Position numbers and translations under genes: made by a program
Shown: positions 48,047 to 62,743 of the stretch, one piece after another
How positions within the stretch are numbered: position 1 is the first letter of the stretch
How the letters are laid out: each line of letters starts with the position of its first letter
Notes under the pieces: model-generated
Database searches by the model: none
Seen by the model: only the letters and a program-made list of their open reading frames with translations
What the model was told of the DNA's origin: nothing
Source: Flavobacterium sp.
Lineage (GTDB): Bacteria; Bacteroidota; Bacteroidia; Flavobacteriales; Flavobacteriaceae
NCBI GenBank assembly: GCA_036386895.1
Contig: DASVUR010000002.1
Location: 243-64,242 of the forward strand
DNA length: 64,000 nucleotides
Direction: 5' to 3'

Positions 48047-48063
48047 CGTAAATATTGATATAC

Positions 48064-48094
48064 AAACAAAGACCCATCAGAAAACTGACGGGCC
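48064..48094 (-). terminator. Intrinsic terminator after glf
   Basis: Minus strand GGCCCGTCAG-tttt-CTGATGGGTC-TTTGTTTG. Confidence 0.75.
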
Positions 48095-48117
48095 TGAAGT
48101 TGTTGGTAAAATAGGAG

Positions 48118-49263: not shown

Positions 49264-50405
49264 AGTTCGGCCGTTTTGCTGATGATTTGGCTCATTTGGC
49301 TGACCGTGTTGTTCCATGATGTCTTTTCGAGAATTTCGCGATAGTCTGCGTCCAAGGCCAGTTTGTCGGTTTTGCCCAAGGCTTTGTCGATCGCTTCAGT
49401 AAAGTTTTCGGCAGAGTCAACGATAGACACACAGTGGCTGTAATCACGAACTACATCTTTAATTGCTGTAGAAATAATAGGCTTTCCTGCGGCAATGTAT
49501 TCAAGGGTCTTCGTCGGACTGATAAATTTCGTCGCATCGTTTAGTGCAAAAGGCATCATGGCTACTGAAAATGCTTTAAGGTAGTTTGGAAGCACGTTGT
49601 ACGACTTCATACCGAGGTAATGGATATTTTCTAATCTTGGCAGATCATGGTCGCCGATTTTCGCCAAAGGACCAATCATTACAAAGGATACTTCAGGGTT
49701 GATTTTCGCAGTTTGCTCAAGCAACTGAAGATCGATCCGTTCGTCGATTACACCAAAATAACCTACGATAGGCGAAGGAATGTTCGCGATATCGTCCGGA
49801 ATCGACACGCCGTTGAGGGCTTTTGCAAAATGCTCCTGATCGACCGAGCTTGGGAAGCAGTAAACATGGTCATGCAATTGCTTTTTGGACTCATATAACG
49901 ATTTACCACCCGTGAAAATGATATCGGCATTTGAAATTAGAAACTTTTCCTGCTCAAGAAGTTCAGCCGGCGCGCCCTTAAACAAGGTAAGTTCGTCCAT
50001 GCAATCGTAAATAATCGTTCCGAAATTGAATTCAGGTAGCAACGAAACAAACGAAGGCGAATAAAACCAGCCGATATTGATGCTCGTATCGGATACAAAC
50101 TGTGGCAACACGTTCTTAATTTCCGCGATAGACGCTGTCTTTGGCTGCAGAATATGCAAATTTTCGCTAATCTTGTGAAGATTCCCGGTATTGGCTTCTT
50201 CCGGACTATGGGGTATTGGTTCCTCAATAAGAAGTATTTTAAAGTTTTTTGCAAGTCGGCTGATAATGTGCTGCGGGCGTTGGTAAACAAATTCCCATCT
50301 CAGATGGCAAAACACCACCATATCGTAGCCTTCTTTTGAAGAACCTGTTGCGGAAATGCTGTCGTTTTTTGCTGTGATTTTCTCACTGGTTTTGATCTTT
50401 TCCAT
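49260..50405 (-). CDS. GT-B glycosyltransferase (glf-associated)
   Basis: HLRWEFVYQRPQH, YDCMDEL, GYFGVIDERID, SPTKTLEYIAAGKPIIST. Confidence 0.88.
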   Translation of the reverse strand: MEKIKTSEKITAKNDSISATGSSKEGYDMVVFCHLRWEFVYQRPQHIISRLAKNFKILLIEEPIPHSPEEANTGNLHKISENLHILQPKTASIAEIKNVLPQFVSDTSINIGWFYSPSFVSLLPEFNFGTIIYDCMDELTLFKGAPAELLEQEKFLISNADIIFTGGKSLYESKKQLHDHVYCFPSSVDQEHFAKALNGVSIPDDIANIPSPIVGYFGVIDERIDLQLLEQTAKINPEVSFVMIGPLAKIGDHDLPRLENIHYLGMKSYNVLPNYLKAFSVAMMPFALNDATKFISPTKTLEYIAAGKPIISTAIKDVVRDYSHCVSIVDSAENFTEAIDKALGKTDKLALDADYREILEKTSWNNTVSQMSQIISKTAEL

Positions 50406-50619: not shown

Positions 50620-50680
50620 AATTGTACAATGCCACATCATAATTCTATAACTTCTACTTCCTACAAAAAAGCCACTTTTG
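50620..50680 (+). promoter_or_regulatory. Island regulon promoter of the leader/cytidylyltransferase
   Basis: aattgtacaa-N11-aattctataa-N22-CACTTTTG. Confidence 0.6.
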
Positions 50681-50684
50681 TAAA

Positions 50685-50826
50685 GACGCTGCCAGTGCTC
50701 CCGGAAGCGAATCAAAATGCCATAAAATCGAAAAGTTTCAGAGAAAACGGTAGTGCATTCTCGTTACACGGATATCGGAAGCTTTTCACAAGTGGAGTAA
50801 TAAGTCGTTTATTACTCCACTTTTTA
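50685..50826 (+). ncRNA. Candidate ~140-nt structured sRNA or attenuator leader
   Basis: Bounded by a promoter and a 14-bp terminator; internal stem GAAAAGTTTC (50730-39) / GAAGCTTTTC (50778-87) enclosing GAGAA/TTCTC. Confidence 0.4.
50790..50826 (+). terminator. Intrinsic terminator 25 nt upstream of the cytidylyltransferase start
   Basis: AAGTGGAGTAATAA-gtcgt-TTATTACTCCACTT-TTT, perfect 14-bp stem. Confidence 0.75.
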
Positions 50827-50850
50827 TCCAAGAACAATAAACCAACTTAT

Positions 50851-51312
50851 ATGCAAGCAGAAACTACTAAAATAGGAATTACTTTCAGCGCGTTCGACCT
50901 GCTACACGCCGGCCACATTCGGATGCTGGAAGAGGCAAAGACGGTGTGCGACTATCTTATCGTCGGGCTCCAGACTGATCCAACCCTTGACCGCCCGGAG
51001 AAGAACATGCCCACACAATCAGTCGTTGAACGTTATATCCAGCTAAAAGGGTGCAAATTTGTAGATGAAATTGTTCCTTACGCTACCGAGCAGGATCTTG
51101 AAGACATTCTGAAGTCTTTTACCATTCATGTTCGAATAATCGGCGACGAGTATAAAAGCAAGAATTTTACAGGCCGTTCGTACTGTGAAGAAAAAGGAAT
51201 TGAACTTTATTACAACAAAAGAGATCACCGTTTTTCAAGTAGCGGGCTTCGGCGTGAAGTGTATGAGCGAGAGTGCGAAAAACTCAATACCAAACTTACT
51301 ATGGTAAAATAA
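50851..51312 (+). CDS. Glycerol-3-phosphate cytidylyltransferase-like (TagD-like HxGH nucleotidyltransferase)
   Basis: SAFDLLHAGH, IVGLQTD, IIGDEY, RDHRFSSS; start reset to MQAETT. Confidence 0.85.
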   Translation: MQAETTKIGITFSAFDLLHAGHIRMLEEAKTVCDYLIVGLQTDPTLDRPEKNMPTQSVVERYIQLKGCKFVDEIVPYATEQDLEDILKSFTIHVRIIGDEYKSKNFTGRSYCEEKGIELYYNKRDHRFSSSGLRREVYERECEKLNTKLTMVK

Positions 51313-51332
51313 TTATTGATGAATACTATTTG

Positions 51333-51361
51333 AAACGGCGTCCCATGGATGCCGTTTTTTT
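51333..51361 (+). terminator. Intrinsic terminator
   Basis: AAACGGCGTCC-cat-GGATGCCGTTT-TTTT. Confidence 0.8.
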
Positions 51362-51405
51362 ATGCGTCTATGTCAGGTTTTACAGGCTAAACCAATCAAA
51401 ATTGA

Positions 51406-51465
51406 CTTTGTGCAAATTTTGACAAAAATTATGTAAAGCATGGAATACAACGTCATCTAAATTTG
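51406..51465 (+). promoter_or_regulatory. Island regulon promoter of the 11-gene glyco operon
   Basis: ctttgtgcaa-N11-aattatgtaa-N21-TAAATTTG. Confidence 0.6.
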
Positions 51466-51540
51466 TAAGAGAACTAATAATAATTGCTGTTTCGGCTATT
51501 TTTTCTGCATTCGATTGTAGGATTTTTTTGAATCAAAGTA

Positions 51541-52269
51541 ATGCGAAAGCAAATAAACACCATGGCGCAAATTGGCTATAGCGGAATCGCATTGGTAACG
51601 GGTGCGTCAAACGGAATTGGAAAGGCAATTGCGGCACGGCTTGCAGAAGCGGATTTTAATGTGGCTGCGGCCGATGTTGTTCCATTCGAAAATCCACCAC
51701 GGAACATCAATCATTATCAATGCGATGTTTCGGACGGTAAACAGGTAGACGAACTCTACGCCAGAATGAACAGCGAGATCGGACTGCCTGATGTATTGGT
51801 TTTGAATGCCGGAATCGGGATCCACGAGATGCTCACAGAAGGTGATCCCGAAAAATGGTTCAGGGTTATCAATACAAATCTGATTGGTCCGCTGCGGTTC
51901 GTACGTGCATTTGTTCCGCCAATGGTTCAGAAGAAAAGAGGCCATGTCGTCTTTATTTCTTCAGTCGCTGCCGATCAGCCTTATACATATGGCGGAGTCT
52001 ACAGCGCGACCAAAGCAGGATTGGAGCGTATTGCTGAAACACTCCGGCTGGAAACAGCTCCCGATATCAGTGTCACAGTGGTTTCAGCTGGTGTAACCGA
52101 CACAAATTTTTTTGAAAATCAAGTATCGGCAGGAAATACTGTTGAAAGTATCGGAATGGGTGCCATTAAGGCGAAACAAATTGCCGAAGACGTGTTTTAT
52201 GCAATTTCCCGACCGCAGGGCACTGCACTTAATAAAATTATTATCCGTCCGTCAGGACAAACTTTTTAA
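51541..52269 (+). CDS. Short-chain dehydrogenase/reductase
   Basis: TGASNGIG, LNAG, YSATK; start may be 51562. Confidence 0.9.
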   Translation: MRKQINTMAQIGYSGIALVTGASNGIGKAIAARLAEADFNVAAADVVPFENPPRNINHYQCDVSDGKQVDELYARMNSEIGLPDVLVLNAGIGIHEMLTEGDPEKWFRVINTNLIGPLRFVRAFVPPMVQKKRGHVVFISSVAADQPYTYGGVYSATKAGLERIAETLRLETAPDISVTVVSAGVTDTNFFENQVSAGNTVESIGMGAIKAKQIAEDVFYAISRPQGTALNKIIIRPSGQTF

Positions 52270-52280
52270 AACCAAACAAT

Positions 52281-53396
52281 ATGAAAAAAAGAATATTAAT
52301 TACCGGTGGAGCGGGGTTTATAGGATCGCACCTTGCCGATGAACTAATTGAGAAAGGATATGAAGTCCGTGCGCTTGACAATCTCTCGGAACAAGTTCAC
52401 GGTCCGGCGGCGCAACGTCCTGAATATCTAAATCCGCAAGTGGAGCTTATTGTTGGCGATGTGCGCGATAAAGACACTGTAATCGAAGCATTACAGGATG
52501 TAGACGCAGTATTTCACTTTGCAGCAATGGTCGGCGTAGGCCAAAGTATGTACCAGATAAGAGATTATACCGATGTAAACAATGTCGGCACCGCAGTTTT
52601 GCTTGAGGCGCTAACAGAGAATCCTGTCAGCAAACTTGTTGTTGCATCCAGCATGAGCATTTATGGTGAAGGCTTGTACACCAATGGCCATGGCGAATTT
52701 GTTCATGAATGCGATCGTAGGCTGGAAGATCTGAAATCGCAGCGATGGGAACTGTATGATGATGAGCGAGGTATTCTGAAACCGCTTGCAACTCCTGAAA
52801 CGAAAAAGCCAAACCTTTCGTCGGTTTATGCATTGTCGAAGTACGACCAGGAGCGACTTTGCCTGATTACAGGAAAAGCATATAATATCCCGACTACTGC
52901 ATTGCGGTTTTTCAACGTTTACGGAACACGTCAGGCGCTGTCAAACCCATACACAGGCGTGCTAGCGATTTTCGCGTCTCGTCTGTTGAACAATAACGCT
53001 CCGCTAATATTTGAAGACGGCTGTCAGAAGCGCGATTTCGTTCATGTGAAAGATGTTGCCCGGGCGTGCCGTCTGGCGCTCGAAACTCCTGAAGCCGACG
53101 GCGAAGTGTTCAACGTTGGAAGCGGAAACCAATATACGATAGTTGAGATTGCCGAAAAACTTGCAAAAGTCATGGGTAAGAATATAAACGCGCAGCTGAC
53201 AGCAAAATACAGAGTTGGCGATATCCGTCACTGCTTTGCCAACCTTGATAAAGCGAAAGCGATTCTTGGATATGAACCTCAGGTTAATTTTGAAGAAGGC
53301 CTTACCGAACTTGCCGAATGGCTTGAAGGGCAGATTGCTGTTGACAGCGTTTCGCAGGCAACTGAGGAACTTGCAGCGCGAGGTTTAACTGTTTAA
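52281..53396 (+). CDS. NAD-dependent NDP-sugar epimerase/dehydratase (WbiB-like 4-epimerase)
   Basis: TGGAGFIGSH, LDNLSEQVHG, SSMSIYGEG, YALSK, RFFNVYG, RDFVHV. Confidence 0.88.
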   Translation: MKKRILITGGAGFIGSHLADELIEKGYEVRALDNLSEQVHGPAAQRPEYLNPQVELIVGDVRDKDTVIEALQDVDAVFHFAAMVGVGQSMYQIRDYTDVNNVGTAVLLEALTENPVSKLVVASSMSIYGEGLYTNGHGEFVHECDRRLEDLKSQRWELYDDERGILKPLATPETKKPNLSSVYALSKYDQERLCLITGKAYNIPTTALRFFNVYGTRQALSNPYTGVLAIFASRLLNNNAPLIFEDGCQKRDFVHVKDVARACRLALETPEADGEVFNVGSGNQYTIVEIAEKLAKVMGKNINAQLTAKYRVGDIRHCFANLDKAKAILGYEPQVNFEEGLTELAEWLEGQIAVDSVSQATEELAARGLTV

Positions 53397-53405
53397 TTCG
53401 CTACT

Positions 53406-55433
53406 ATGAGAAAAATTTCTGTTAAACCTGATACTTCAAAAATTGGAATAGTCGAGTGGTTCAGGCCGGGCCAATACGATGAAGTGAAACAAACAATAGC
53501 GGATTTTAACGTACTGGGTGTTAGTAAAATACGCACTGGCGTTTCATGGGCGGAATGGCATGTAGAAGGCACGCCGGAATGGTACGATTGGCTGTTTCCC
53601 GAGCTCGCAAAGCACGTCGAGATCCTGCCATGCGTTCTGTACACGCCACCTTCATTGGGCGAAGCCGAACGTGTGTCGGCGCCGCCAAAATACTTAAAAG
53701 CGTATGCCGATTTTATTGACGTGATGATCACGAGATATGGCGACTATTTTGAGTGGATCGAACTATGGAATGAGCCGAACAACATCGTAGAATATGATTT
53801 CACGCTTGATTATTCCTGGAACAAATTTGCAGAAATGATTGGAAACGCTGCCTATTGGGCGCAGCATCGTGGCAAGAAAACGCTATTGGGCGGAATGAGC
53901 CCGATCGATCCCAATTGGCTGCAAACTATGGCGGAAAAGGGGGCATTAACCTGCATCGATGCGATCGGTATACATGGTTTTCCAGAAGTATTCGATCAGC
54001 AATGGTCGGGATGGGAGCTAAATCTTAGGGCGGTCCGCGAAGTACTGGAGCGGAACAACCTGAAGAAAGAACTATGGATTTCTGAAGTGGGTTTCTCGAC
54101 CTGGCAAGGCGACGAAGTCAAGCAATGGGAAGAGTTCAAGAAGGTCATCAATACCGACGCCGACAGAATTTACTGGTACGGGCTTAACGATCTCGATCCA
54201 CAATATCCAACGGTCGCCGGATTCCACCTTGACGATCGAGAGTACTACTTCGGAATGAAAAAATATGATGGGACAGAGAAGCTATTGTATAAATTATTAG
54301 CAAAAGAAGGAATGGAAAATATCAGCAAACACGACTACATCAACAAACAATATTCAGTCGAAACTGACCAAAAATATACACTGATAACCGGCGGCGCAGG
54401 CTTTATAGGAACAAATCTCGCCAGCCGTTTGCTCAGTGAAGGGAAACGGGTGATGGTCTATGATAACCTGTCGCGCGCAGGAGTCGAGCAAAATCTTCAG
54501 TGGCTGAAGGAACAATACGGCGATCGCCTTATCGTCCAGATCGCCGACATCCGTGAGAAGCGTATCCTTGAGGAATCGGTAAAGAATGCCGACCAGGTGT
54601 TCCATTTCTCCGCACAGGTTGCCGTTACGTCGTCACTGACAAACCCGACGCACGATTTTGAGGTAAACATACTGGGGACTTTCAATCTGCTTGAAGCAAT
54701 TCGCAACTCACCAAACCAACCACCGCTTGTGTTTACGTCAACAAACAAAGTGTATGGCGATTTAATGGATCTCGGCCTTCGTACCGACAGCACGCGCTAT
54801 TATCCGGAAAGCGATTACTTTAGAAAACATGGCATAGATGAGTCGCGTCCGTTGGATTTTCACAGTCCGTACGGTTGTTCAAAAGGTGCAGCCGATCAGT
54901 ACGTGCTTGACTACTCCCGTTCATACGGATTAAAAACGGCTGTGTTCAGGATGAGTTGCATCTACGGGCCGCATCAGTTTGGTACGGAAGATCAAGGCTG
55001 GGTCGCACATTTCCTGATCCATGCGCTTGAGGACCGGGCAATTACAATCTATGGCAATGGCAAGCAGGTACGCGATATTCTGTTTGTAGATGATCTTGTG
55101 AATGCATTTGTCCTTGCTCAGCAGAATATCGACAAGATTGCAGGCAATGCGTTCAACATCGGCGGCGGACCAGAAAATACAACCAGCCTGATTGAGATAC
55201 TCGACACCATTAAAGCTAAAACCGGCAAGCAAATGCAGATTTCTTATGAAGAATGGCGTACCGGAGATCAACAGTACTATGTTTCGGATACTACGAAATT
55301 TTCAAAAGCGACCGGCTGGTCTGCGCAGTATTCAGTTTCTGAAGGTGTGGAAGCATTGATGAACTGGCTCTGCGAGTCGCGCGGCATTGAGCTGCCTGAA
55401 AGAAATTCCGTAACTAAAGCTATTGCGATATAA
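53406..55433 (+). CDS. Fusion of a clan GH-A TIM-barrel glycoside hydrolase-like domain and a CDP-paratose 2-epimerase (RfbE)-like extended SDR
   Basis: N-terminal ELWNEP and WISEVG (acid/base and nucleophile Glu); C-terminal TGGAGFIG, DFHSPYGCSKGAADQY, DQGWVAHF; single uninterrupted ORF. Confidence 0.82.
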   Translation: MRKISVKPDTSKIGIVEWFRPGQYDEVKQTIADFNVLGVSKIRTGVSWAEWHVEGTPEWYDWLFPELAKHVEILPCVLYTPPSLGEAERVSAPPKYLKAYADFIDVMITRYGDYFEWIELWNEPNNIVEYDFTLDYSWNKFAEMIGNAAYWAQHRGKKTLLGGMSPIDPNWLQTMAEKGALTCIDAIGIHGFPEVFDQQWSGWELNLRAVREVLERNNLKKELWISEVGFSTWQGDEVKQWEEFKKVINTDADRIYWYGLNDLDPQYPTVAGFHLDDREYYFGMKKYDGTEKLLYKLLAKEGMENISKHDYINKQYSVETDQKYTLITGGAGFIGTNLASRLLSEGKRVMVYDNLSRAGVEQNLQWLKEQYGDRLIVQIADIREKRILEESVKNADQVFHFSAQVAVTSSLTNPTHDFEVNILGTFNLLEAIRNSPNQPPLVFTSTNKVYGDLMDLGLRTDSTRYYPESDYFRKHGIDESRPLDFHSPYGCSKGAADQYVLDYSRSYGLKTAVFRMSCIYGPHQFGTEDQGWVAHFLIHALEDRAITIYGNGKQVRDILFVDDLVNAFVLAQQNIDKIAGNAFNIGGGPENTTSLIEILDTIKAKTGKQMQISYEEWRTGDQQYYVSDTTKFSKATGWSAQYSVSEGVEALMNWLCESRGIELPERNSVTKAIAI

Positions 55434-56446
55434 TGGAAACAGTCATTTTTCCAAAAACTACTGAAAGTAATTTTCCAGAAATTCAAACGATAAAAGCCGC
55501 TGTTCTCGTTGCCCCGAAGCAAATTGAGGTGCGCGATGTGGCAATGCCTGCACCCAAAACCGGCGAAATTCGTGTAAAACTTGAAGGCTGCGGCGTTTGT
55601 GCATCAAACATCCCCGTTTGGGAAGGCCGTGAATGGTTTTCATATCCTGTTTCCGGGGGAAATCCCGGACATGAAGGCTGGGGAACTGTCGAGGCAATAG
55701 GCGAGGGCGTAATTGGAGTCACCGTGGGTGAACGGATAGCCTGTTTGTCGTACAACGCCTACGCTGAATATGACATTGCAAAGGCTTCCGAAATTGTAAA
55801 ACTTCCGGCTTTTCTTGATGGCAAGCCTTTTCCGGGCGAGCCTTTAGGCTGTGCAATGAATATTTTTAATCGATGCGACATTCAACCCGGACAAACGGTA
55901 GCCATTATCGGCGCCGGATTTTTAGGCGTGCTTCTTGTCCAGCTTGCTAAATCGGCTGGAGCCAATGTAATTGCAGTATCGCAACGGGCGTTTTCACTAG
56001 AAACGGCAGCAAAGGCTGGAGCCGACCATCTTGTGCCAATGGACGATCATTACCGGATTATAGAAAAAGTAGGCGAACTCACAAACGGAAAGTTCTGCGA
56101 ACGCGTGATTGAAGTTACAGGCAAAGAATGGCCGCTGAATTTGTCAATTGAACTTACAGCAGAGCGTGGGCGACTGATCGTGGCAGGATTCCACCAGGAC
56201 GGATTGCGTCAGGTAAATATGCAACTGCTGAACTGGCGGGGAATTGACCTGATTAATGCGCATGAACGCGATCCGAAACAATATGTCCAGGGAATGCGCG
56301 ACGCAATAACAGCAATTGAAGCCGGCAAGATGGATCCATTTCCATTCTTCACGCACAGTTATCCGCTTGAAGACGCGCAGGAGGCATTCGAGCATTTGAG
56401 AAGCAGACCCGACGGATTTATAAAAGCACTTTTAATCAACCAGTAA
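55433..56446 (+). CDS. Zn-dependent medium-chain dehydrogenase (no structural-Zn lobe)
   Basis: GVCAS, GHEG, GEPLGC, GAGFLG; no Cys4 cluster. Confidence 0.85.
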   Translation: METVIFPKTTESNFPEIQTIKAAVLVAPKQIEVRDVAMPAPKTGEIRVKLEGCGVCASNIPVWEGREWFSYPVSGGNPGHEGWGTVEAIGEGVIGVTVGERIACLSYNAYAEYDIAKASEIVKLPAFLDGKPFPGEPLGCAMNIFNRCDIQPGQTVAIIGAGFLGVLLVQLAKSAGANVIAVSQRAFSLETAAKAGADHLVPMDDHYRIIEKVGELTNGKFCERVIEVTGKEWPLNLSIELTAERGRLIVAGFHQDGLRQVNMQLLNWRGIDLINAHERDPKQYVQGMRDAITAIEAGKMDPFPFFTHSYPLEDAQEAFEHLRSRPDGFIKALLINQ

Positions 56447-56447
56447 A

Positions 56448-57473
56448 ATGACATTAACAGATCAGCAACAGGAAACAAAAGCACTGGCACTTGGCTTTAT
56501 AGGTGTGGGATGGATTGGCAGAAACCGTATGGAAGTCCTTGTCAACAGCGGGAAAGCAACGGCGGCGGCAATATCCGAACCCTATACGGAAAACGCAAAT
56601 GCTGCTCTTGAAACTGCTCCTGAAGCACACATTTTGGATAATCCCGAGCTTATTTATTTAAATTCCAGTCTTGATGGCGTGGTAATCGCAACTCCGAGTG
56701 CGCTTCATGCCGAACAATCAAAGAGTGCACTGGATTCAGGAAAAGCGGTGTTTTGCCAGAAGCCTCTTGGCCGTACGGCTGCTGAAGTCCGCGATGTCGT
56801 TAACGCTTCAAAATCGGCAAATAAACTTCTTGGGGTCGATCTTTCTTACCGTTATACTAAAGCCTTCAACTCAGTTTATAATGTTGTTGCAGGTGGTCAG
56901 ATAGGGAAAATATTTGCGGTCGACCTCATATTCCACAATGCCTATGGTCCTGACAAAGAGTGGTTTTACGATATAAAACGATCGGGCGGCGGCTGCGTGA
57001 TGGACCTCGGAATCCATTTAGTTGATTTGGCGCTTTGGTCTTTGGGTTTCCCCGATGTAACTAAAGTCGACAGCCATCTGTTCAGCAAAGGACGTAAGCT
57101 TGCACCGAATGAGGAGCAGGTAGAAGATTTTGCCAAAGTTTCTATGTTGACAGGCGACCACACATCGATCAGCCTTAAATGTTCATGGAACGTATCGGCC
57201 GGACAAGATGCCGTGATCGAAGCACGATTCTACGGAACTGGCGGTGGCGCTGCTTTTAGAAATATCAATGGTTCGTTTTACGACTTTCAAGCTGAAAGAT
57301 ACAACGGAACCCAAACCGAAATACTTGCCTCGCCGCCGGATGACTGGAGTGGCCGTGCAGGAGTTGTTTGGGCCGAAAGAATATTGAACGGAACCGGATT
57401 CGATGCTGAAACAGCAACAGAATTTATAAAAACCGCTGAGGTCATCGACCGCATCTATGGAAGGCGGATTTAA
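56448..57473 (+). CDS. Gfo/Idh/MocA-family oxidoreductase
   Basis: GFIGVGWIG, IATPSALH, FCQKP, GGGCVMDLGIHLVD. Confidence 0.9.
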   Translation: MTLTDQQQETKALALGFIGVGWIGRNRMEVLVNSGKATAAAISEPYTENANAALETAPEAHILDNPELIYLNSSLDGVVIATPSALHAEQSKSALDSGKAVFCQKPLGRTAAEVRDVVNASKSANKLLGVDLSYRYTKAFNSVYNVVAGGQIGKIFAVDLIFHNAYGPDKEWFYDIKRSGGGCVMDLGIHLVDLALWSLGFPDVTKVDSHLFSKGRKLAPNEEQVEDFAKVSMLTGDHTSISLKCSWNVSAGQDAVIEARFYGTGGGAAFRNINGSFYDFQAERYNGTQTEILASPPDDWSGRAGVVWAERILNGTGFDAETATEFIKTAEVIDRIYGRRI

Positions 57474-58551
57474 AATATTGATGACTGCCGATACCGTTGG
57501 TGGTGTCTGGACATATGCCGTTGATTTGTGCCGTGCGTTGCAGTCGCATCAGGTTCACGTCCACTTGGCCACAATGGGCGCTCCGCTGTCGGATGATCAA
57601 AAGCAGCAAGTTCAGCAGTTGCCGAATGTCTTTGTTTACGAAAGCCGCTACAAACTTGAATGGATGCAGGATCCGTGGGAAGATATAGCAGCAGCAAAAG
57701 AATGGCTGAAGCAAATTTTTATGAAGGTGAACCCAGATCTTGTTCACTTCAACAACTTCGGGCAATGTGATGCAGATTGGAAGTGTCCTGTTGTGACGGT
57801 TTTCCACTCTTGCGTGCAAACGTGGTTCCGGGCAGTGAAGAAGTCGGACGCGCCTTCTGAATGGAACGGGTATACAAGTATTGTGAAGAACGCATTGAAC
57901 AGTTCTGACATCATAATTGCTCCGTCGAAATCAATAGCAATTGAAGCAGCCGAAATATACCAATGCGGTAATTTTCAAGTGATTTACAACGGAAGCGACA
58001 AGGTCTCGAATGCTCCTCATAAGCAGCCGTATATACTGGCCGCCGGAAGAATTTGGGATGAGGCGAAGAACATCGCACTTCTGACGAAAATTGCGGACAA
58101 GTTATCCTGGCCGGTGTACGTTGCCGGTGATAACGTTGCACCGCATACACCGGATGCCGCGGATATGGCTAAGGTTTATTTTCTCGGAAAGCTTCCCGCT
58201 GATGAACTTCAGCACTATATGTCGGATGCCGCAATATTTGTGTCGCCTACAAAGTACGAGCCATTCGGACTCGCTATCCTTGAAGCCGCAAATGCAGGAT
58301 GTGCCTTAGCGTTGGCAGATATTCCCACGCTGCGGGAAATCTGGGGCGATTCTGCTGTCTATTTTAGTCCGGAGGACGAAGCTGAGGCTTTGTTGACACT
58401 TCAATATCTGATCGATAATCCTGAATCACGTACCGAACTTGCACACCGGTCTTCGGCACGTGCAAAAACATACAACACGAGCGAAATGGCGAACGCTTAC
58501 AAAGAACTATATACTAAAATAGTCGCTCAAAAATTAAAACCAACCATATGA
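57457..58551 (+). CDS. GT4-family glycosyltransferase
   Basis: TADTVGGVWTY, AGRIWDEAKN, YEPFGLAILEAANAG. Confidence 0.88.
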   Translation: MEGGFKILMTADTVGGVWTYAVDLCRALQSHQVHVHLATMGAPLSDDQKQQVQQLPNVFVYESRYKLEWMQDPWEDIAAAKEWLKQIFMKVNPDLVHFNNFGQCDADWKCPVVTVFHSCVQTWFRAVKKSDAPSEWNGYTSIVKNALNSSDIIIAPSKSIAIEAAEIYQCGNFQVIYNGSDKVSNAPHKQPYILAAGRIWDEAKNIALLTKIADKLSWPVYVAGDNVAPHTPDAADMAKVYFLGKLPADELQHYMSDAAIFVSPTKYEPFGLAILEAANAGCALALADIPTLREIWGDSAVYFSPEDEAEALLTLQYLIDNPESRTELAHRSSARAKTYNTSEMANAYKELYTKIVAQKLKPTI

Positions 58552-59681
58552 AAATTGCTCTTTTTTATCACTCGTTATACTCCGACTGGAATCACGGGAA
58601 CGCCCATTTTTTAAGAGGAACCGTAAAGGAACTTCTAAAGCGTGGCCACGATGTATCGGTTTACGAGCCTGAAGGCGGATGGAGCTTGACCAACCTTGTG
58701 AACGATCACGGACGCGAAAGGCTTGACGAATTCAAAACATATTATCCGGAATTATCAGCGTCATTTTATAATCCGACAAAGCCTCCTTACGAACAAATGC
58801 TTAAAGACGCCGACCTTGTACTCGTACACGAGTGGAATGAGCCGGAGCTTGTTGCAGAAATTGGTCGCCTTAAAGAAACTTTCGGCTATAAACTGCTGTT
58901 TCACGACACGCATCACCGAGCGGTTTCAGAAGTTGAAAGCATGTCTAAGTATGACTTTTCCAATTACGACGGCGCGCTTGTTTTTGGCGACGTCATCAAA
59001 AAAATATATCAGCAGGAAAACTGGATCCAAAATGTATGGACCTGGCATGAAGCTGCTGACCCCGACCTGTTTGCGCCTCAGAAAGACGCCGACAAAATTG
59101 GCGATCTCGTATGGATCGGGAATTGGGGCGATAATGAGCGTACCGAAGAATTGATGGAATTCCTTGTCAAACCCGTAAAAGAGCTCGGGTTAAAAGCGAA
59201 AGTGTACGGAGTTCGTTACCCTGAAGAAGCATTGGCAGCCTTGAAAGATGCCGGAATAGAATACGGCGGCTGGCTCCCGAACTATAAAGCGCCTGAAGTT
59301 TTCGCACAATATAAGGTAACGGTTCATGTTCCGCGCGGACCATATGTAAAATGGCTACCCGGAATTCCGACAATACGCCCCTTTGAAGCATTGTCATGCG
59401 GAATTCCGCTGATCTGCTCGCCGTGGAACGATGCTGAACATTTATTTTCTCCAGGTGAAGATTACCTGACGGCGTCAAACGGTGAAGAAATGAAATCCCA
59501 ATTACAAAAAATCCTTAGCGAGGAAACCTTTGCAAAGGAAATTTCCAAGCGCGGACGACAAACGATATTATGCCGACATACATGTGCGCACCGCGTCGAC
59601 GAACTGGAGGATATCTGTCGGGAACTGGGTTTTTTGGAATCAAAAATAAACGTACTACAGAAAAATATTCTTGAAGCATGA
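58548..59681 (+). CDS. CgeB-like (DUF3880 / Glyco_trans_1_2) glycosyltransferase 1
   Basis: SLYSDWNHGNAHFLRG, HDTHHRA, IPTIRPFEALSCG. Confidence 0.8.
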   Translation: MKIALFYHSLYSDWNHGNAHFLRGTVKELLKRGHDVSVYEPEGGWSLTNLVNDHGRERLDEFKTYYPELSASFYNPTKPPYEQMLKDADLVLVHEWNEPELVAEIGRLKETFGYKLLFHDTHHRAVSEVESMSKYDFSNYDGALVFGDVIKKIYQQENWIQNVWTWHEAADPDLFAPQKDADKIGDLVWIGNWGDNERTEELMEFLVKPVKELGLKAKVYGVRYPEEALAALKDAGIEYGGWLPNYKAPEVFAQYKVTVHVPRGPYVKWLPGIPTIRPFEALSCGIPLICSPWNDAEHLFSPGEDYLTASNGEEMKSQLQKILSEETFAKEISKRGRQTILCRHTCAHRVDELEDICRELGFLESKINVLQKNILEA

Positions 59682-60793
59682 ACAACACCAATTTAAAAAT
59701 AGCATTTTTCGGTTCCAGCATCGTTTCGGCATATTGGAACGGCGCTGCAACCTATTACCGTGGGATCGTGAAAGCGTTGCACGCGATGGGGCATGATGTA
59801 ACCTTTTACGAACCAGACATCTACGAACGGCAGAAACATCGGGACATTGAAGATCCGGCTTATTGCCGTGTTGTTGTATATCAAAGTTCGGAAGAAGAAT
59901 TACGACAGCACCTTGAACAAGCTGCGTTGGCCGACGTTATCATAAAGGCGAGCGGCGTGGGTGCACTGGATGATTTCCTTGAGCAAGAGATCGCCGTTAT
60001 GAAATCGGATGCTAACCTTGTTATCTTCTGGGATGTTGATGCACCGGCAACACTCGACAGGATTGAGAGCGACGCCTTCGATCCATTCAATGCTTTGATT
60101 CCGAAATATGATTACATTCTGACATACGGTGGCGGACAACCTGTGATCGAAGCATATAAGCGAAACGGCGCCCAACAATGTATACCGATTTACAATGCAC
60201 TCGATACCGATACGCACTTTCCGGTGGCACCCGAACCGCGTTTCGAAGGAACCCTTGCCTTTCTTGGAAATCGTTTGCCCGATCGTGAGGCACGTGTTGA
60301 GGAATTTTTTCTGAAACCTGCTGCAAACCTTCCGAATTTCAAGTTTTTACTTGGCGGAAGCGGTTGGGGCGACAAGCACATGCCGTTTAATGTTGATTAC
60401 ATTGGACACGTTTACACAAAAGACCATAACGCGCTGAATTGTACTCCCACGGCAGTCTTGAACATCAGCCGCGACAGCATGGCAAAATATGGTTTTTCGC
60501 CTGCGACAAGGGTATTTGAAGCAGCCGGCGCCGGAGCATGCATTATAACCGATTATTGGGAAGGCATCGAGTTCTTTTTTGAACCCGGAAAAGAAATACT
60601 TGTTGCAAAAGATGGCGACGAAGTAGCTTCGATCATTCGCGACCTAACGCCGGAACAGGCACGCAATATTGGTGATGCTGCTTACAAGAAAGTGCTGGAA
60701 ACGCATACTTACGGTCATCGTGCACAATTGCTTCAATCAATATTTAACAAATCATTATCTGCCTCGCAGGTAGATATAATTGAAAACATATGA
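59678..60793 (+). CDS. CgeB-like glycosyltransferase 2
   Basis: SIVSAYWNGAATYYRG, WDVDAPATL, GNRLPDRE, SPATRVFEAAGAG. Confidence 0.82.
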   Translation: MNNTNLKIAFFGSSIVSAYWNGAATYYRGIVKALHAMGHDVTFYEPDIYERQKHRDIEDPAYCRVVVYQSSEEELRQHLEQAALADVIIKASGVGALDDFLEQEIAVMKSDANLVIFWDVDAPATLDRIESDAFDPFNALIPKYDYILTYGGGQPVIEAYKRNGAQQCIPIYNALDTDTHFPVAPEPRFEGTLAFLGNRLPDREARVEEFFLKPAANLPNFKFLLGGSGWGDKHMPFNVDYIGHVYTKDHNALNCTPTAVLNISRDSMAKYGFSPATRVFEAAGAGACIITDYWEGIEFFFEPGKEILVAKDGDEVASIIRDLTPEQARNIGDAAYKKVLETHTYGHRAQLLQSIFNKSLSASQVDIIENI

Positions 60794-61896
60794 AATTCGT
60801 AGTTATAGGCTTATCGGTCACATCTTCTTGGGGGAATGGCCATGCCACAACGTATCGCGCACTGCTGAAAGAACTGTCGAAGCTGGGGCATGATATTCTT
60901 TTTTTGGAGAAGGATGTTCCCTATTATGCTTCAAACCGCGACCTGCCAAATCCCGACTTTTGTCGGCTGGCGTTGTATCAGTCGAACGACGAGCTAATGC
61001 AGGAATATCGCGATGAAGTCGCAAACGCCGATGTTGTAATTGTGGGCTCGTATGTGCAGCAAGGCGTGGAAGTTGGCAAATGGGTAATAAATACAGCCGG
61101 CGGAATCAAAGCATTTTACGATATCGATACGCCTGTTACACTTGCAAAACTTGAACGTGAGGATTTTGAATATATTACTCCGTCGCTGATTGCGAAATAT
61201 GATCTTTACCTATCCTTCTCAGGTGGGCCTATACTAGACCATATCGAGCGTTACTACGGATCGCCGGCTGCAAGGGCATTGTACTGTTCGGTTGACCCGG
61301 AACATTATTTTCCTGAAGAAGAACTGAAGAAATGGGAGATGGGTTACCTCGGAACGTATAGCGTAGATCGTCAGCCAACGGTTGATTTACTGCTGAACAA
61401 AACGGCCACTTTATATCCTGAGGGAAAGTTTGTTGTTGCCGGACCGCAATATCCATCGCAGATAGAATGGCCGCAAAATGTGGAACGCATCGAACATTTG
61501 CCGCCTGCCGAGCATCGGAAATTTTACAATTCGCAGAAGTATACGTTGAACGTGACGCGCGAGGATATGATTCGCGCGGGCTATTCCCCGAGTGTGCGGC
61601 TGTTTGAAGCGGCAGCGTGCGGCGTTCCCATTATTTCTGATTATTGGGACGGGCTCACATCTTTGTTTGAAGAAGGAACTGAAATACTGATTGCACGTAC
61701 GGCTGAGGATGTTCTAAAATATTTAAATGAAATTGATGATGTTGAACGGAAGCAAATAGGCGAGAAGGCGCGGCAGAAAGTCCTCAAAATCCATACGGCA
61801 GCAGCACGCGCGGCGGAGCTGGTTGGGTATGTGGAAGATATCAAGCAGCTTTCGGAAACGACGGTTGAAGATACAACATCAAAAGCATCTTTATGA
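60790..61896 (+). CDS. CgeB-like glycosyltransferase 3
   Basis: SVTSSWGNGHATTYRA, YDIDTPVTL, SPSVRLFEAAACG. Confidence 0.82.
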   Translation: MKFVVIGLSVTSSWGNGHATTYRALLKELSKLGHDILFLEKDVPYYASNRDLPNPDFCRLALYQSNDELMQEYRDEVANADVVIVGSYVQQGVEVGKWVINTAGGIKAFYDIDTPVTLAKLEREDFEYITPSLIAKYDLYLSFSGGPILDHIERYYGSPAARALYCSVDPEHYFPEEELKKWEMGYLGTYSVDRQPTVDLLLNKTATLYPEGKFVVAGPQYPSQIEWPQNVERIEHLPPAEHRKFYNSQKYTLNVTREDMIRAGYSPSVRLFEAAACGVPIISDYWDGLTSLFEEGTEILIARTAEDVLKYLNEIDDVERKQIGEKARQKVLKIHTAAARAAELVGYVEDIKQLSETTVEDTTSKASL

Positions 61897-62699
61897 ATTT
61901 GAACGAGGAGATAAAAAATCTGGAACCATGGTTTCACAATATCCACCTGCCCGACGGAACGCAAACCTCGCCGCGGCATTTTCTTGGGGATTTCCCAGCT
62001 TTCAAATGGAAAAAAATAAAAGATTCGATTCCGGAAGATCTATCAGGTTGGAAGGTGCTCGACATTGGCTGCAACGCCGGCTTTTACTCGATTGAACTTG
62101 CTAAACGCGGCGCAACCGTGGTCGGAATAGATCTCGACGATCATTATTTGAAACAGGCGAAATGGACGGCAAATCAATTTGGTTTCCAGGACAGAATCAC
62201 ATTTAAAAAGATGCAGGTTTATGATCTGGCGCATATTGATGAGGAGTTTGACCTGGTCTGGTTTATGGGTGTTTTCTACCATTTGCGCTATCCGATGCTC
62301 GCAATGGACATTATCGCGCAGAAAGTAAAGAAGTTGCTGGTTTTTCAGACACTTTCAATACCCGGAACCGAGGAGATGGAAATTCCCAGTGATATCACCT
62401 TTCACGGTCGCGATGTTTTAAAAGAAATCGCATTCCCAAAGATGGCCTTTATTGAAAACAGCCTTGCCGGTGACCATACGAATTGGTGGGTTCCGAACCA
62501 TCAGGGAATTTTATCGATGCTAAGCAGTTGCGGGTTCAAGGTAGAAGCAATGCCGGAAGATGAAACGTACGTGGCGGTTAAGGATCCAAATATTAATACA
62601 GATTTTAATACGTGGAATTATTCCGAATATCTGTCGGCGACAGGTAGTGATTGGCAAAATGAAATCGAGAAGAAGACAAAAAATAAGTACAAAATTTAA
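61893..62699 (+). CDS. CmoB/DUF1698-like class I SAM-dependent methyltransferase (resembles TIGR04290 family)
   Basis: PWFHNIHLPDG, FKW, VLDIGCNAGFY, MGVFYHLRYP, NWWVPN. Confidence 0.82.
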   Translation: MNLNEEIKNLEPWFHNIHLPDGTQTSPRHFLGDFPAFKWKKIKDSIPEDLSGWKVLDIGCNAGFYSIELAKRGATVVGIDLDDHYLKQAKWTANQFGFQDRITFKKMQVYDLAHIDEEFDLVWFMGVFYHLRYPMLAMDIIAQKVKKLLVFQTLSIPGTEEMEIPSDITFHGRDVLKEIAFPKMAFIENSLAGDHTNWWVPNHQGILSMLSSCGFKVEAMPEDETYVAVKDPNINTDFNTWNYSEYLSATGSDWQNEIEKKTKNKYKI

Positions 62700-62708: not shown

Positions 62709-62743
62709 GTAAGAGGGACAAATTTTACTTGTCCCTCCTTTAC
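62709..62743. terminator. Hairpin/terminator between convergent units
   Basis: GAGGGACAA-attttac-TTGTCCCTC. Confidence 0.65.

Follow-up and report, generated by a model that had tools for sequence, protein, structure and literature searches.

What do ten neighbouring genes for sugar-modifying enzymes produce, if no gene for export or polymerization accompanies them? The question is raised by a stretch of 64,000 nucleotides from a Flavobacterium sp. contig (hereafter the window), for which an original prediction, made from the letters alone, proposed an operon of cytoplasmic enzymes making a methylated oligosaccharide or cyclitol glycoside. An ORF scan places ten co-directional genes on the forward strand between 51541 and 62699 (Table 1), and an independent public gene call for the contig contains the same ten, with gene 1 starting at 51562. 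Eleven genes, as predicted, are obtained only if the fusion protein encoded by gene 3 is taken as two.

Table 1. Features of the locus in window coordinates, with predicted products and the evidence for them
Feature	Position	Strand	Description	Evidence
TAAATTTG	51458-51465	+	Candidate -7 promoter element (Bacteroidota type), ~75 nt before gene 1	Pattern search
Gene 1	51541-52269	+	Classical short-chain dehydrogenase/reductase (SDR), 242 aa (235 aa from 51562)	PF00106, 148.7 bits
Gene 2	52281-53396	+	Extended-SDR (GalE-like) NDP-sugar 4-epimerase-like protein, 371 aa	PF01370, 187 bits, two stretches
Gene 3	53406-55433	+	Two-domain fusion, 675 aa	
Gene 3, N-terminal domain	53406-54365	+	PslG-like clan GH-A (beta/alpha)8 glycosidase (GH), predicted cytoplasmic	Motifs, AF2 model, Foldseek
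Gene 3, C-terminal domain	54366-55433	+	CDP-tyvelose 2-epimerase-like (TyvE/RfbE-like) NDP-sugar C2-epimerase	PDB matches
Gene 4	55433-56446	+	Medium-chain (MDR, Zn-ADH family) polyol/sugar dehydrogenase, 337 aa	PF00107, PF08240
Gene 5	56448-57473	+	Gfo/Idh/MocA oxidoreductase, ring-hydroxyl dehydrogenase type, 341 aa	PF01408, PF22725
Gene 6	57457-58551	+	GT4 retaining glycosyltransferase, 364 aa	PF13439, PF00534
Gene 7	58548-59681	+	CgeB-like GT-B, paralogue A, 377 aa	PF13524, 124.9 bits
Gene 8	59678-60793	+	CgeB-like GT-B, paralogue B, 371 aa	PF13524, 138.2 bits
Gene 9	60790-61896	+	CgeB-like GT-B, paralogue C, 368 aa	PF13524, 130.2 bits
Gene 10	61893-62699	+	TIGR04290-family class I methyltransferase, CmoB-related, 268 aa; marker gene of the system	TIGR04290
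Stem-loop	62709-62743	+	10 nt past gene 10 stop; 13-pair stem; -15.8 kcal/mol, z = -4.4	RNA fold

The genes are closely packed. Gaps of 11 nt (genes 1/2) and 9 nt (genes 2/3) are followed by junctions that are exactly as predicted, namely a 1-nt overlap at 55433, a 1-nt gap at 56447, a 17-nt overlap at 57457-57473 and 4-nt ATGA overlaps at 58548, 59678, 60790 and 61893. Upstream, the candidate -7 element is the sole forward-strand match in the spacer 51313-51540; the motif occurs in the window at chance frequency (58 found, 53 expected), and a sigma-70 promoter scan yielded scores at background. Downstream, the predicted hairpin is present, with a weak U-tract behind the stem, and probably marks the end of the operon. 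The notion of a genomic island with its own regulon found no support, as the flanks consist of core housekeeping genes and the GC content of the cassette (0.46-0.475) lies inside the range of the window (0.39-0.48). Just upstream, on the opposite strand, lie divergent genes for a UDP-galactopyranose mutase (Glf) and a TuaH-like glycosyltransferase (GT), neither of which is conserved with the cassette in related loci.

None of the ten proteins has a signal-like N-terminus or a transmembrane segment in a Kyte-Doolittle scan. Genes for Wzx, Wzy, Wza, an ABC exporter or a priming transferase are missing from the 64 kb as well as from the next 10 kb, and the same is true of radical SAM genes. Likewise, no transporter, exporter or priming glycosyltransferase emerged as conserved when every ORF from 80 related loci was clustered. 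Junctions, transmembrane scan and gene-content search together bear out the original picture of one tight operon without export machinery: the ten genes are a real operon of soluble sugar-modifying enzymes.

Pfam and NCBIfam searches agree with the proposed classes of the individual enzymes (SDR, extended SDR, zinc-dependent dehydrogenase, Gfo/Idh/MocA, GT4 and CgeB-like), and the predicted fusion of a glycosidase with an RfbE-like epimerase in gene 3 is genuine. Its glycosidase half has no Pfam match and no match to the GH39 HMM; its AlphaFold (AF2) model (pLDDT 93.4) is most similar in Foldseek to PslG (5bx9, 4zn2, 9g17; E ~1e-16, TM 0.73). The predicted catalytic residues, Glu123 in an NEP and Glu227 in an SEVG motif, are each at least 90% conserved among 40 homologs, and the domain lacks a signal peptide even in those lineages where it is encoded by a stand-alone gene. 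The C-terminal half matches the CDP-tyvelose 2-epimerases 9rl0 (E = 2.6e-95) and 1orr (E = 6.4e-87), with its STNK and YGCSK catalytic motifs aligned to those of the TyvE structures. To judge from these conserved glutamates and aligned catalytic residues, both domains look active.

Relatives were also found for the remaining redox and epimerase enzymes. Gene 2, which has an insertion of ~40 residues, has UDP-glucose, UDP-GlcNAc and UDP-GlcA 4-epimerases, i.e. UDP-hexose and UDP-uronate enzymes, as its nearest solved relatives, and orthologs of 52-53% identity in Sinorhizobium and Azospirillum. Gene 4 weakly resembles Tdh, IolM and sorbitol dehydrogenases, and the closest relatives of gene 5 are inositol 2-dehydrogenase, 1,5-anhydrofructose reductase and glycoside 3-dehydrogenases. 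Gene 1 is a lineage-specific extra gene, present in 8 of the 56 loci with a full upstream flank and there only in Flavobacteriaceae-type copies.

Four glycosyltransferases follow. Gene 6 has weak sequence matches in the PDB (E ~1e-5), including the sucrose-phosphate synthase Tll1590, PimA (E = 7e-5) and GlgM, and we propose that it is a priming transferase acting on a soluble acceptor. The three predicted CgeB-like enzymes all belong to PF13524, with scores of 125-138 bits at a cut-off of 25; a Pfam search detected no DUF3880 N-terminal domain in any of them. Foldseek places the AF2 model of gene 8 (pLDDT 90.8) next to sucrose-phosphate synthase, the mannosyltransferase of methylmannose polysaccharide (MMP) synthesis (7qsg, second-best), MshA and BshA, and also GlgM and PimA. 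Such GT-B-to-GT4 matches are generic. These neighbors, PimA aside, are GT4 enzymes using soluble acceptors. The paralogs are mutually 26-32% identical, whereas each has a one-to-one ortholog of 50-60% identity in Sinorhizobium and Azospirillum (51% for gene 7, 50-60% for gene 9); gene 8 shares 72-74% with its Legionella orthologs. The old triplication and the one-to-one orthology are in keeping with a product of fixed structure, not with a serotype-variable polymer.

The predicted membership of gene 10 in TIGR04290 holds, with 335.2 bits against a curated cut-off of 300 over model positions 2-225 of 226. Among solved structures, CmoB is the closest (E = 8e-10). Since CmoB transfers a carboxymethyl group, the nature of the group moved by gene 10 is an assumption on our part.

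This methyltransferase marks a far larger family of loci, being at least 51% identical in all 80 related loci. Genes 2-10 are collinear at 50-77% identity in Bacteroidota, Cyanobacteria, Planctomycetota, Verrucomicrobiota, Acidobacteriota, Gemmatimonadota, Actinomycetota, Bacillota, Desulfobacterota and Proteobacteria, the latter including Legionella and rhizobial chromids. Overall, carriers come from at least 14 phyla, among them the monoderm-type Actinomycetota, Bacillota and Chloroflexota, with median identities of 43-66%. Among the 56 loci whose sequence extends 9 kb or more upstream of the methyltransferase gene, the order 7-8-9-10 is kept in 45, with the GT4 gene added in 44, and all of genes 2-10 are collinear in 28; the four glycosyltransferases are one-to-one orthologous across phyla at 36-60% identity. 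The presumed confinement to soil and rhizosphere does not hold, as the cassette also occurs in Legionella, marine and saline Flavobacteriaceae, cyanobacteria and a skin Roseomonas. By contrast, the suspected link to the 'rhizo-twelve' family TIGR04295 is real: Azospirillum has both families in one cluster, together with orthologs of window genes 2, 6, 7, 8, 9 and 10 and of the glycosidase (31-60% identity). In some versions, the TIGR04295 B12-radical-SAM enzyme takes the place of the two dehydrogenases (genes 4-5), its gene occupying the slot of gene 4. We read the window copy as the form that Flavobacteriaceae have of this cassette, which is ancient, has been shared horizontally and is recognized by its TIGR04290 methyltransferase. 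We found no paper on this cassette, experimental ones included; its collinearity across phyla is the new result here.

A clue to the acceptor comes from fuller versions of the cassette, which add inositol-3-phosphate synthase, a histidine phosphatase, UDP-xylose genes and a pyruvyl transferase. The synthase adjoins in 11 loci and the phosphatase in 16; a second, non-orthologous, eukaryote-like synthase adjoins in a Desulfomonilales MAG and in Legionella jordanis. Both genes lie beside the methyltransferase or the cassette in Sinorhizobium, Azospirillum, Legionella, Ramlibacter, Variovorax, Verrucomicrobiota and several MAG lineages, and minimal loci consist of synthase, glycosidase, phosphatase and methyltransferase alone. 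In Legionella, the proteins adjoining these genes are 69-72% identical to those of the window. Variant loci in Fibrobacterota and Chitinispirillia furthermore add a PIG-L/MshB-family deacetylase, a GT4 and an acyltransferase, resembling a mycothiol- or GPI-like front end; their GT4 and that of the window are not orthologous (21% identity). Synthase, phosphatase and a 584-aa protein are absent within 10 kb of the window copy, as they are within 10 kb of all Bacteroidota copies except that of Flavisolibacter. Because the window copy has neither synthase nor phosphatase, a cyclitol acceptor is assigned to it solely through orthology with other phyla. The cyclitol part of the original prediction has gained independent support from the synthase and phosphatase neighbors in these other lineages.

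Gene content, solubility, orthology and neighborhood can be read from the loci directly; on catalytic roles, sequence of reactions and acceptor, we offer the following proposal. We see about an even chance that the cassette assembles, entirely in the cytoplasm, a single O-methylated oligoglycoside of defined structure, probably on myo-inositol or its phosphate. The two extended SDRs would reshape common NDP-hexoses, gene 2 as a 4-epimerase type and the TyvE-like domain by epimerization at C2 (Glc to Man type). The GT4 enzyme would then glycosylate a soluble acceptor, for which myo-inositol phosphate supplied from elsewhere in the genome is the likeliest candidate, and the anciently diverged CgeB-like enzymes would add one further residue each. 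The dehydrogenases of genes 4-5 and the SDR of gene 1 may oxidize and reduce a ring hydroxyl, either on a sugar or on the cyclitol, the TIGR04290 enzyme would add a methyl cap, and the PslG-like domain may trim, size or recycle the product in the cytoplasm. If so, the product would be a conserved small glycoside or short glycan rather than a variable surface polysaccharide, possibly serving as a stress or desiccation protectant, a storage compound or a cofactor-like metabolite.

Alternatively, the cassette could be a module for a surface or secreted polysaccharide (EPS, CPS or an O-antigen side branch), built on a lipid carrier, with priming transferase, flippase, polymerase and exporter encoded elsewhere and the PslG-like domain processing the polymer, as such hydrolases usually do. 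Exopolysaccharide loci classically contain genes for PslG-like glycosidases and pyruvyl transferases, which speaks against the cytoplasmic proposal: the best structural match of the glycosidase comes from the Psl locus, the cassettes of Legionella, Sinorhizobium and Flavisolibacter come with a polysaccharide pyruvyl transferase and an FrhB-like partner protein, and Glf and a TuaH-like transferase flank it in the window. We nevertheless regard such a module as doubtful. The cassette encodes no membrane protein, an exporter or priming transferase is conserved in none of the 80 loci and absent from the window, and the glycosidase is fused to a cytoplasmic SDR and lacks a signal peptide. One-to-one orthology of four glycosyltransferases is unlike hypervariable surface-glycan loci, monoderm-type carriers fit poorly, the repeated link to inositol-phosphate synthase, phosphatase and PIG-L deacetylase would be unexpected, and Glf and the TuaH-like transferase do not travel with the cassette.

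Less probable still is a glycolipid, in which the GT4 and CgeB-like enzymes, as peripheral proteins, would decorate phosphatidylinositol or another inositol lipid at the cytoplasmic leaflet to form a PIM-like methylated glycolipid or lipoglycan anchor. Because PimA-type enzymes are soluble and peripheral, this is compatible with the lack of transmembrane segments, as it is with the inositol synthase association, and the phosphatidylinositol mannosyltransferase PimA appears both among the weak matches of gene 6 and among the structural neighbors of gene 8. However, phosphatidylinositol synthase, acyltransferase and flippase are not conserved in the loci, and the histidine phosphatase beside the synthase suggests that glycosyl-inositol-phosphate occurs as a free intermediate, as it does on the routes to mycothiol and compatible solutes. 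Inositol lipid synthesis is not known in rhizobia and Legionella.

We judge a cytoplasmic methylated polysaccharide of the MMP/MGLP kind similarly improbable. Here, the transferases would extend a polymer that does not require inositol, the methyltransferase would decorate it, and the glycosidase would set its length and make primers. Four distinct, anciently diverged transferases instead suggest four linkages rather than a homopolymer, a PDB search found no similarity of gene 10 to any labeled MMP methyltransferase, and the synthase, phosphatase and deacetylase of related loci would go unexplained, even though the window copy itself lacks inositol genes, its TyvE-like epimerase could supply NDP-mannose, the MMP mannosyltransferase ranks second among the neighbors of gene 8, and the cluster logic of GT4, methyltransferase and hydrolase without export genes is shared. 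Finally, a system that glycosylates a protein, whether in the cytoplasm or at the surface, in the way suggested for CgeB of the Bacillus spore crust, is very improbable, since apart from membership of genes 7-9 in a family named for CgeB and YkvP, the loci have no conserved candidate acceptor protein, the hosts do not sporulate, other cge genes were not seen, and the best structural neighbors use small soluble acceptors.

Several known systems invite comparison with the cassette. Its CgeB-like enzymes share PF13524 with Bacillus subtilis CgeB/YkvP, and their homologs are publicly annotated as 'spore maturation protein CgeB', but they occur in non-sporulating Gram-negative hosts, as three paralogs without detectable DUF3880 whose order relative to a GT4 and a methyltransferase gene is fixed. 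The C-terminal half of gene 3 can be aligned over its full length with CDP-tyvelose 2-epimerase (1orr, 9rl0), with Ser/Thr-Tyr-Lys conserved, yet rfbF, rfbG, rfbH and rfbS of the CDP-3,6-dideoxyhexose pathway are all absent from the window and the domain is fused to a glycosidase. That glycosidase shares the two-glutamate machinery of clan GH-A with PslG (GH39) of Pseudomonas aeruginosa Psl; it differs in sequence (17-18% identity), in lacking a signal peptide or membrane anchor, and in being fused to a cytoplasmic SDR or located beside a phosphatase and methyltransferase.

The TIGR04290/TIGR04295 neighborhood ('rhizo-twelve', rhizobia and Azospirillum) is defined by NCBIfam 'hypothetical equivalog' families. 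Compared with it, the window lacks the TIGR04295 radical SAM enzyme, the inositol-3-phosphate synthase, the histidine phosphatase and the 584-aa protein, and instead has the glycosidase-fused TyvE-like epimerase, the MDR and Gfo/Idh/MocA enzymes in the radical-SAM slot, and an extra SDR. The front end of mycothiol and bacillithiol synthesis is echoed in related TIGR04290 loci by MIPS, GT4, phosphatase and, in the variant, PIG-L deacetylase, and in the window by MshA and BshA among the top structural neighbors of gene 8. By contrast, cysteine ligase and MshD are absent, three extra glycosyltransferases and a methyltransferase are present, and the window itself has no synthase, phosphatase or deacetylase. 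Lastly, the mycobacterial MMP cluster (ManT, MeT1, MeT3, MmpH) likewise combines a cytoplasmic GT4-fold transferase, SAM methyltransferase(s) and a glycoside hydrolase without export genes. No sequence-level homology was detected for its methyltransferase or hydrolase, whereas the window has four different glycosyltransferases and four redox/epimerase enzymes, related loci have the inositol link, and the cassette spans many phyla where the MMP cluster is found in one genus.

The ten-gene forward-strand operon, of which genes 2–10 form the cassette and gene 1 is an extra SDR, occupies 51541–62699 in a mechanical ORF scan, exactly as originally predicted, and an independent gene call on a public contig of identical sequence lists the same ten genes. 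The original prediction counted eleven, a number that is reached only if the 675-aa two-domain protein is counted twice. The junctions are as tight as had been claimed: the first two intergenic gaps measure 11 and 9 nt, after which neighbouring genes overlap by 1 nt at 55433, are 1 nt apart at 56447 and overlap by 17 nt at 57457–57473, with four ATGA overlaps completing the series. The anticipated downstream hairpin is likewise present, as a stem-loop at 62709–62743, beyond the stop codon of gene 10 (-15.8 kcal/mol, z = -4.4). Since the cytidylyltransferase-like gene upstream ends in a strong hairpin with a U7 tract of its own (51332–51358, -17.5 kcal/mol, z = -5.1), the cassette constitutes a separate transcription unit. 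A sigma-70 promoter scan returned background numbers (22 found versus 21.8 expected), and a Bacteroidota-type -7 box is found at 51458–51465, yet such boxes occur at chance frequency, and we claim no promoter; an Rfam scan over 47–64 kb yielded nothing close to a gathering score. As for the cytidylyltransferase-like gene itself, its real start is likely 50851 rather than the mechanical one at 50629. Shortly before 50851, and thus still within the ORF as scanned, there is a perfect hairpin with a 14-bp stem and a U-run (50790–50822, z = -7.9).

The same gene order recurs far beyond this genome. We scanned one genome per species with the methyltransferase alignment and confirmed 571 relatives, the best 80 of which form our locus sample, which is thus biased towards close relatives. 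tblastn with the window proteins places genes 2–10 in collinear order in Bacteroidota, Geomonas, Armatimonadota, Planctomycetota, Verrucomicrobiota, Beta- and Gammaproteobacteria, Gemmatimonadota, Solirubrobacterales, a Bacillota MAG and others; altogether, the nine- to ten-gene pathway is collinear at 50–77% protein identity across at least 14 phyla. The cross-phylum neighbourhood comparison that had been suggested bears the arrangement out: the window shares its gene order with 44–45 of the 56 loci that have a full upstream flank, in which the sequence extends 9 kb or more ahead of the methyltransferase gene. Genes 7-8-9-10 stand in order in 45 of these, accompanied by the GT4 gene in 44, and the full set of genes 2–10 is present in 28; median protein identities across loci are 43–66%. 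The window-type cassette is the commonest variant within this sample of mostly close relatives. Gene 1 is confined to the copies in Flavobacteriaceae, and clustering of all ORFs in the 80 loci brought up no further widely shared neighbour and no transporter. Legionella species (Legionella jordanis locus L089; proteins P0102, P0114, P0119 and P0354) have cassette proteins 68–74% identical to those of the window, compared with 57–59% for Pontibacter and other Bacteroidota orders. That Legionella is closer than members of the same phylum indicates a cross-phylum transfer of the whole cassette, which, judging from these identities, appears to have been recent.

The surroundings of the operon are not part of this conserved unit. 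The cytidylyltransferase, Glf, the TuaH-like glycosyltransferase and DUF2071 upstream as well as an ArsR-like gene downstream were considered as conserved parts and rejected, since none of the 80 loci carries an equivalent of them. The notion of an island does not hold either, as the composition profile is without an outlier and the flanking genes are core; outside the operon, the window carries ordinary chromosomal genes, such as those for ValRS, FtsH, Ddl, CdsA, Psd, SOD, a TetR-controlled efflux pump and regulators. Further features of the window are collected in the table. The divergent unit upstream suggests a galactofuranose-containing glycan. Nothing was seen that would connect the large CheB/CheR fusion protein with the cassette. 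Bacteriophytochrome and heme oxygenase are the classic biliverdin-supply pair, and their presence fits a light-exposed biocrust organism; the window sequence is present in biocrust and soil metagenome runs, and in no RNA run.

Coordinates of annotated features outside the cassette
Feature	Coordinates	Strand	Remarks
Bacteriophytochrome histidine kinase (PAS_2-GAF-PHY-HATPase), 754 aa, together with a heme oxygenase gene	12296–15149	-	heme oxygenase gene directly before
1378-aa fusion of CheB methylesterase, CheR methyltransferase, several PAS and histidine kinase	40014–44150	-	7 kb upstream of the cassette
DUF2071	47324–48046	-	divergent unit 47324–50405 upstream of the cassette
UDP-galactopyranose mutase Glf	48118–49317	-	same divergent unit
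TuaH-like GT-B glycosyltransferase	49260–50405	-	same divergent unit
Cytidylyl/adenylyltransferase-like gene (RfaE domain II / TagD-like)	50629–51362	+	upstream of the cassette

On the protein level, the first half of the operon encodes sugar-modifying enzymes and a glycosidase. By Pfam and NCBIfam, gene 1 is a classical SDR; gene 2 is an extended SDR with an internal insertion, nearest to UDP-hexose and UDP-uronate 4-epimerases, gene 4 is an MDR/Zn-ADH and gene 5 belongs to the ring-hydroxyl dehydrogenase type of Gfo/Idh/MocA oxidoreductases. The C-terminal half of the gene 3 fusion aligns end to end with solved CDP-tyvelose 2-epimerases (9rl0, E = 2.6e-95; 1orr, 6.4e-87) and keeps their catalytic residues, with its STNK and YGCSK motifs aligning to the TyvE/RfbE structures; the CDP-3,6-dideoxyhexose genes rfbF, rfbG, rfbH and rfbS are absent from the Pfam-annotated ORFs of the window. 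Residues 1–320 match no Pfam family at E <= 0.1 and no PDB sequence. This N-terminal domain carries the clan GH-A signatures ELWNEPNN and WISEVGFS; its predicted catalytic glutamates, E123 (acid/base, in the NEP motif) and E227 (nucleophile, after strand 7), each recur in 90% or more of 40 homologues. Its AlphaFold model (pLDDT 93.4) is a (beta/alpha)8 barrel with PslG, the GH39 hydrolase of the Psl locus, as the best match (TM 0.73, E about 1e-16). The N-terminus, MRKISVKPDTSKIG..., is hydrophilic (maximum KD19 = 0.84), and the domain has neither a signal peptide nor an anchor. Across related loci, the cytoplasmic GH falls into two subfamilies, one stand-alone and one fused to the TyvE-like epimerase. 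The stand-alone type, of which only some homologues have a precomputed PF00232 match, is 60–75% identical from Legionella to rhizobia and always has the phosphatase nearby; the fused type is only 30–37% identical to it, and two of the related loci, L048 and L050, have two GH copies each.

The second half of the operon encodes four glycosyltransferases and a methyltransferase. Gene 6 is a GT4 by Pfam and NCBIfam, and genes 7, 8 and 9 score 124.9, 138.2 and 130.2 bits against PF13524, for which the gathering cut-off is 25; DUF3880, another profile named in the original prediction, has no match at E <= 0.001 in any of the ten proteins. The AF2 model of gene 8 (pLDDT 90.8) displays a complete GT-B two-Rossmann fold, the top 50 Foldseek matches of which are all GT-B/GT4 enzymes (TM 0.65–0.74). 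The nearest folds are retaining GT4 enzymes that use soluble acceptors: MshA, BshA, GlgM, sucrose-phosphate synthase and the mannosyltransferase of methylmannose-polysaccharide synthesis. Although the three CgeB-like paralogues are mutually only 26–32% identical, each has a one-to-one orthologue in Sinorhizobium and in Azospirillum at 50–60% identity, from which it follows that the triplication is old and that every copy is under a constraint of its own. Gene 10, a class I methyltransferase, had been likened to TIGR04290, and it indeed scores 335.2 bits over model positions 2–225 of 226, against a curated cut-off of 300. A representative-library search with this protein returned only 149 clusters at E <= 1e-30, so that the TIGR04290-type methyltransferase family, as far as sequence comparison goes, shows itself to be compact and highly conserved.

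The accessory genes of related loci point to the kind of product. On a Sinorhizobium medicae chromid, a first block of a GH (‘beta-xylosidase’), a histidine phosphatase and an inositol-3-phosphate synthase is followed by a 583-aa unannotated protein, by a pair of Gfo and MDR and by a last block of epimerase, TyvE-like protein, GT4, three GTs, UDP-xylose synthase and methyltransferase, and the cluster is adjoined by a pyruvyl transferase and an FrhB-like protein. In Azospirillum, one block comprises the epimerase, a TIGR04295 B12-radical SAM protein (705 bits), GT4 and three GTs, and a second one the synthase, the phosphatase, the TIGR04290 methyltransferase, the GH and a 584-aa unannotated protein. 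Legionella jordanis has a window-type cassette and, behind it, UXS, Ugd, pyruvyl transferase, FrhB-like protein, GH, phosphatase and a eukaryote-like inositol-phosphate synthase of 453 aa. The bacterial-type inositol-3-phosphate synthase is adjacent in 11 loci and the phosphatase in 16; the second, eukaryote-like synthase type also lies directly 5' of the methyltransferase in a Desulfomonilales MAG, and minimal loci consist of synthase, GH, phosphatase and methyltransferase only. Finally, a variant seen in Fibrobacterota and Chitinispirillia has in addition a nucleotidyltransferase, a PIG-L/MshB-family deacetylase, a FemAB/GNAT-like acyltransferase and another GT4, which at 21% identity was rejected as an orthologue of gene 6. 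Because two non-orthologous synthases have been recruited, a phosphatase is present and a PIG-L deacetylase occurs in variants, we argue that the cassette family probably acts on inositol (phosphate) glycosides. The combination of a synthase with a phosphatase is typical of compatible-solute and mycothiol pathways.

Other genes vary between loci. In a Planctomycetota locus, a radical SAM gene takes exactly the MDR/Gfo position of window genes 4 and 5, and two cyanobacteria have one along with the GTs. Tailoring seems to rely on either of two modules, the TIGR04295-type B12-radical SAM gene or the MDR + Gfo/Idh/MocA pair; the relevant genes are found in the related loci L035 (4035–5114), L015 (37–1308), L022 (203–1186) and L085 (11505–12812). 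The conserved protein of about 584 aa goes together with the methyltransferase, GH and phosphatase in at least nine loci (among them L085, 17760–19514; L082, 3013–4761; L078, 14482–16248; and four others). It has no Pfam or NCBIfam match, and its profile gives only a weak choline-kinase-like match at a DHHxDHFxPGxQDIAWD motif (E = 0.06); perhaps it acts in the pathway as a kinase-like enzyme. A 583-aa ORF of the window (17018–18769, - strand) was considered as its missing counterpart; it is unrelated (hhalign probability 0.07) and has no Pfam match. A small DUF1003 protein lies beside the cassette in eight loci (L020, L021, L042, L052, L069 and L083–L085) from Flavisolibacter, Variovorax, Verrucomicrobiota, Sinorhizobium and Azospirillum, with 50–60% identity between phyla and no copy in the window.

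From enzyme families and context, the following pathway may be drawn. Gene 2 and the TyvE-like domain would interconvert NDP-hexoses by C4 and C2 epimerization; the GT4 would prime a soluble acceptor, most likely inositol phosphate, to which genes 7–9 would each add one residue. Genes 4 and 5, as well as gene 1, could carry out redox or epimerization of a ring hydroxyl, gene 10 would methylate the product, and the cytoplasmic GH domain would trim or recycle it. A further possibility is that the TyvE-like enzyme uses an NDP-activated inositol rather than a sugar and epimerizes the carbon beside the phosphodiester, from myo- to scyllo-inositol. We tentatively propose, as an idea that may well prove wrong, that the product represents an undescribed class of metabolites: a tetraglycosyl-inositol with a fixed structure that stays in the cytoplasm and is O-methylated and, depending on the lineage, pyruvylated or C-modified as well. 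Organisms as far apart as Flavobacteria, cyanobacteria, rhizobia, Legionella and Actinomycetota would make it, and it would serve as a desiccation or stress protectant or as a mycothiol-like cofactor scaffold. The main weakness of an inositol acceptor is that tblastn, with the proteins of Sinorhizobium, Azospirillum, Legionella and a MAG as queries, found no inositol synthase, phosphatase or 584-aa protein in the window, and that synthase and phosphatase are not within reach of most Bacteroidota copies either.

The main rival reading is that of a surface polysaccharide module with its export genes elsewhere, as the PslG-like fold, the pyruvyl transferase of some lineages and the nearby Glf would suggest. 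However, no membrane component is conserved and the GH is cytoplasmic; hydrophobic segments and signal-like N-termini are absent from all ten proteins. Neither the operon nor the 64-kb window nor the 10 kb that follow contain a priming phosphoglycosyl transferase, flippase, polymerase or exporter, and the 80 loci have none as a conserved element. The strict orthology of the glycosyltransferases across phyla, monoderm-type lineages included, and the inositol, phosphatase and deacetylase modules of related loci also speak against it. We consider it less likely that the product is a PIM-like inositol glycolipid or an MMP-like cytoplasmic polymer, or that the cassette glycosylates proteins.

With its four dedicated glycosyltransferases, the pathway is among the more strongly conserved glycan pathways without a product in the literature searched. 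The comparative map turns an ‘unknown sugar operon’ into a testable hypothesis of an inositol-anchored methylated oligoglycoside. On this map, the methyltransferase, the cytoplasmic GH-A hydrolase, the GT4 and the three CgeB-like GTs make up the core; modules for inositol-phosphate synthase and phosphatase, UDP-xylose, pyruvylation and PIG-L are optional, and the MDR + Gfo pair is exchangeable with the B12-radical SAM enzyme. The cassette also yields an unclassified cytoplasmic GH-A family and a functional context for the CgeB family. Tractable carriers of orthologues include Sinorhizobium meliloti 1021 (pSymB, about 240–258 kb), Azospirillum and Legionella. It is our impression that many carriers appear to come from dry, saline or irradiated habitats, and a role in desiccation tolerance, if true, would be of ecological and applied interest.

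Among known systems, PslG is extracytoplasmic, with a signal peptide or anchor, whereas the GH domain of the window has neither. The MMP cluster (with MeT1, MeT3 and MmpH) likewise combines a GT4-fold transferase, a methyltransferase and a hydrolase without export genes, but this is a likeness of logic; homology to this cluster, as to the mycothiol front end, probably does not extend beyond the GT-B fold, and the 50 PDB matches of gene 10 include no chain named as an MMP methyltransferase. The cassette is a relative of the ‘rhizo-twelve’ neighbourhood of rhizobia and Azospirillum. The suggested link between TIGR04290 and TIGR04295 is real, both families occurring together in the Azospirillum cluster, and the window has orthologues of its epimerase (53% identity), GT4 (34%), CgeB-like GTs (51, 55 and 60%), methyltransferase (48%) and GH (31%). 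As predicted, there is no radical SAM gene in the window, neither as a tblastn match for the Azospirillum TIGR04295 protein nor as a radical SAM Pfam match in the ORFs; and since the synthase and the phosphatase are absent as well, the window cassette is related to rhizo-twelve, but lacks its defining features. The literature searched in full text contains no paper on this cluster, and we rate the cassette as a previously undescribed variant of a computationally known, chemically uncharacterized system.
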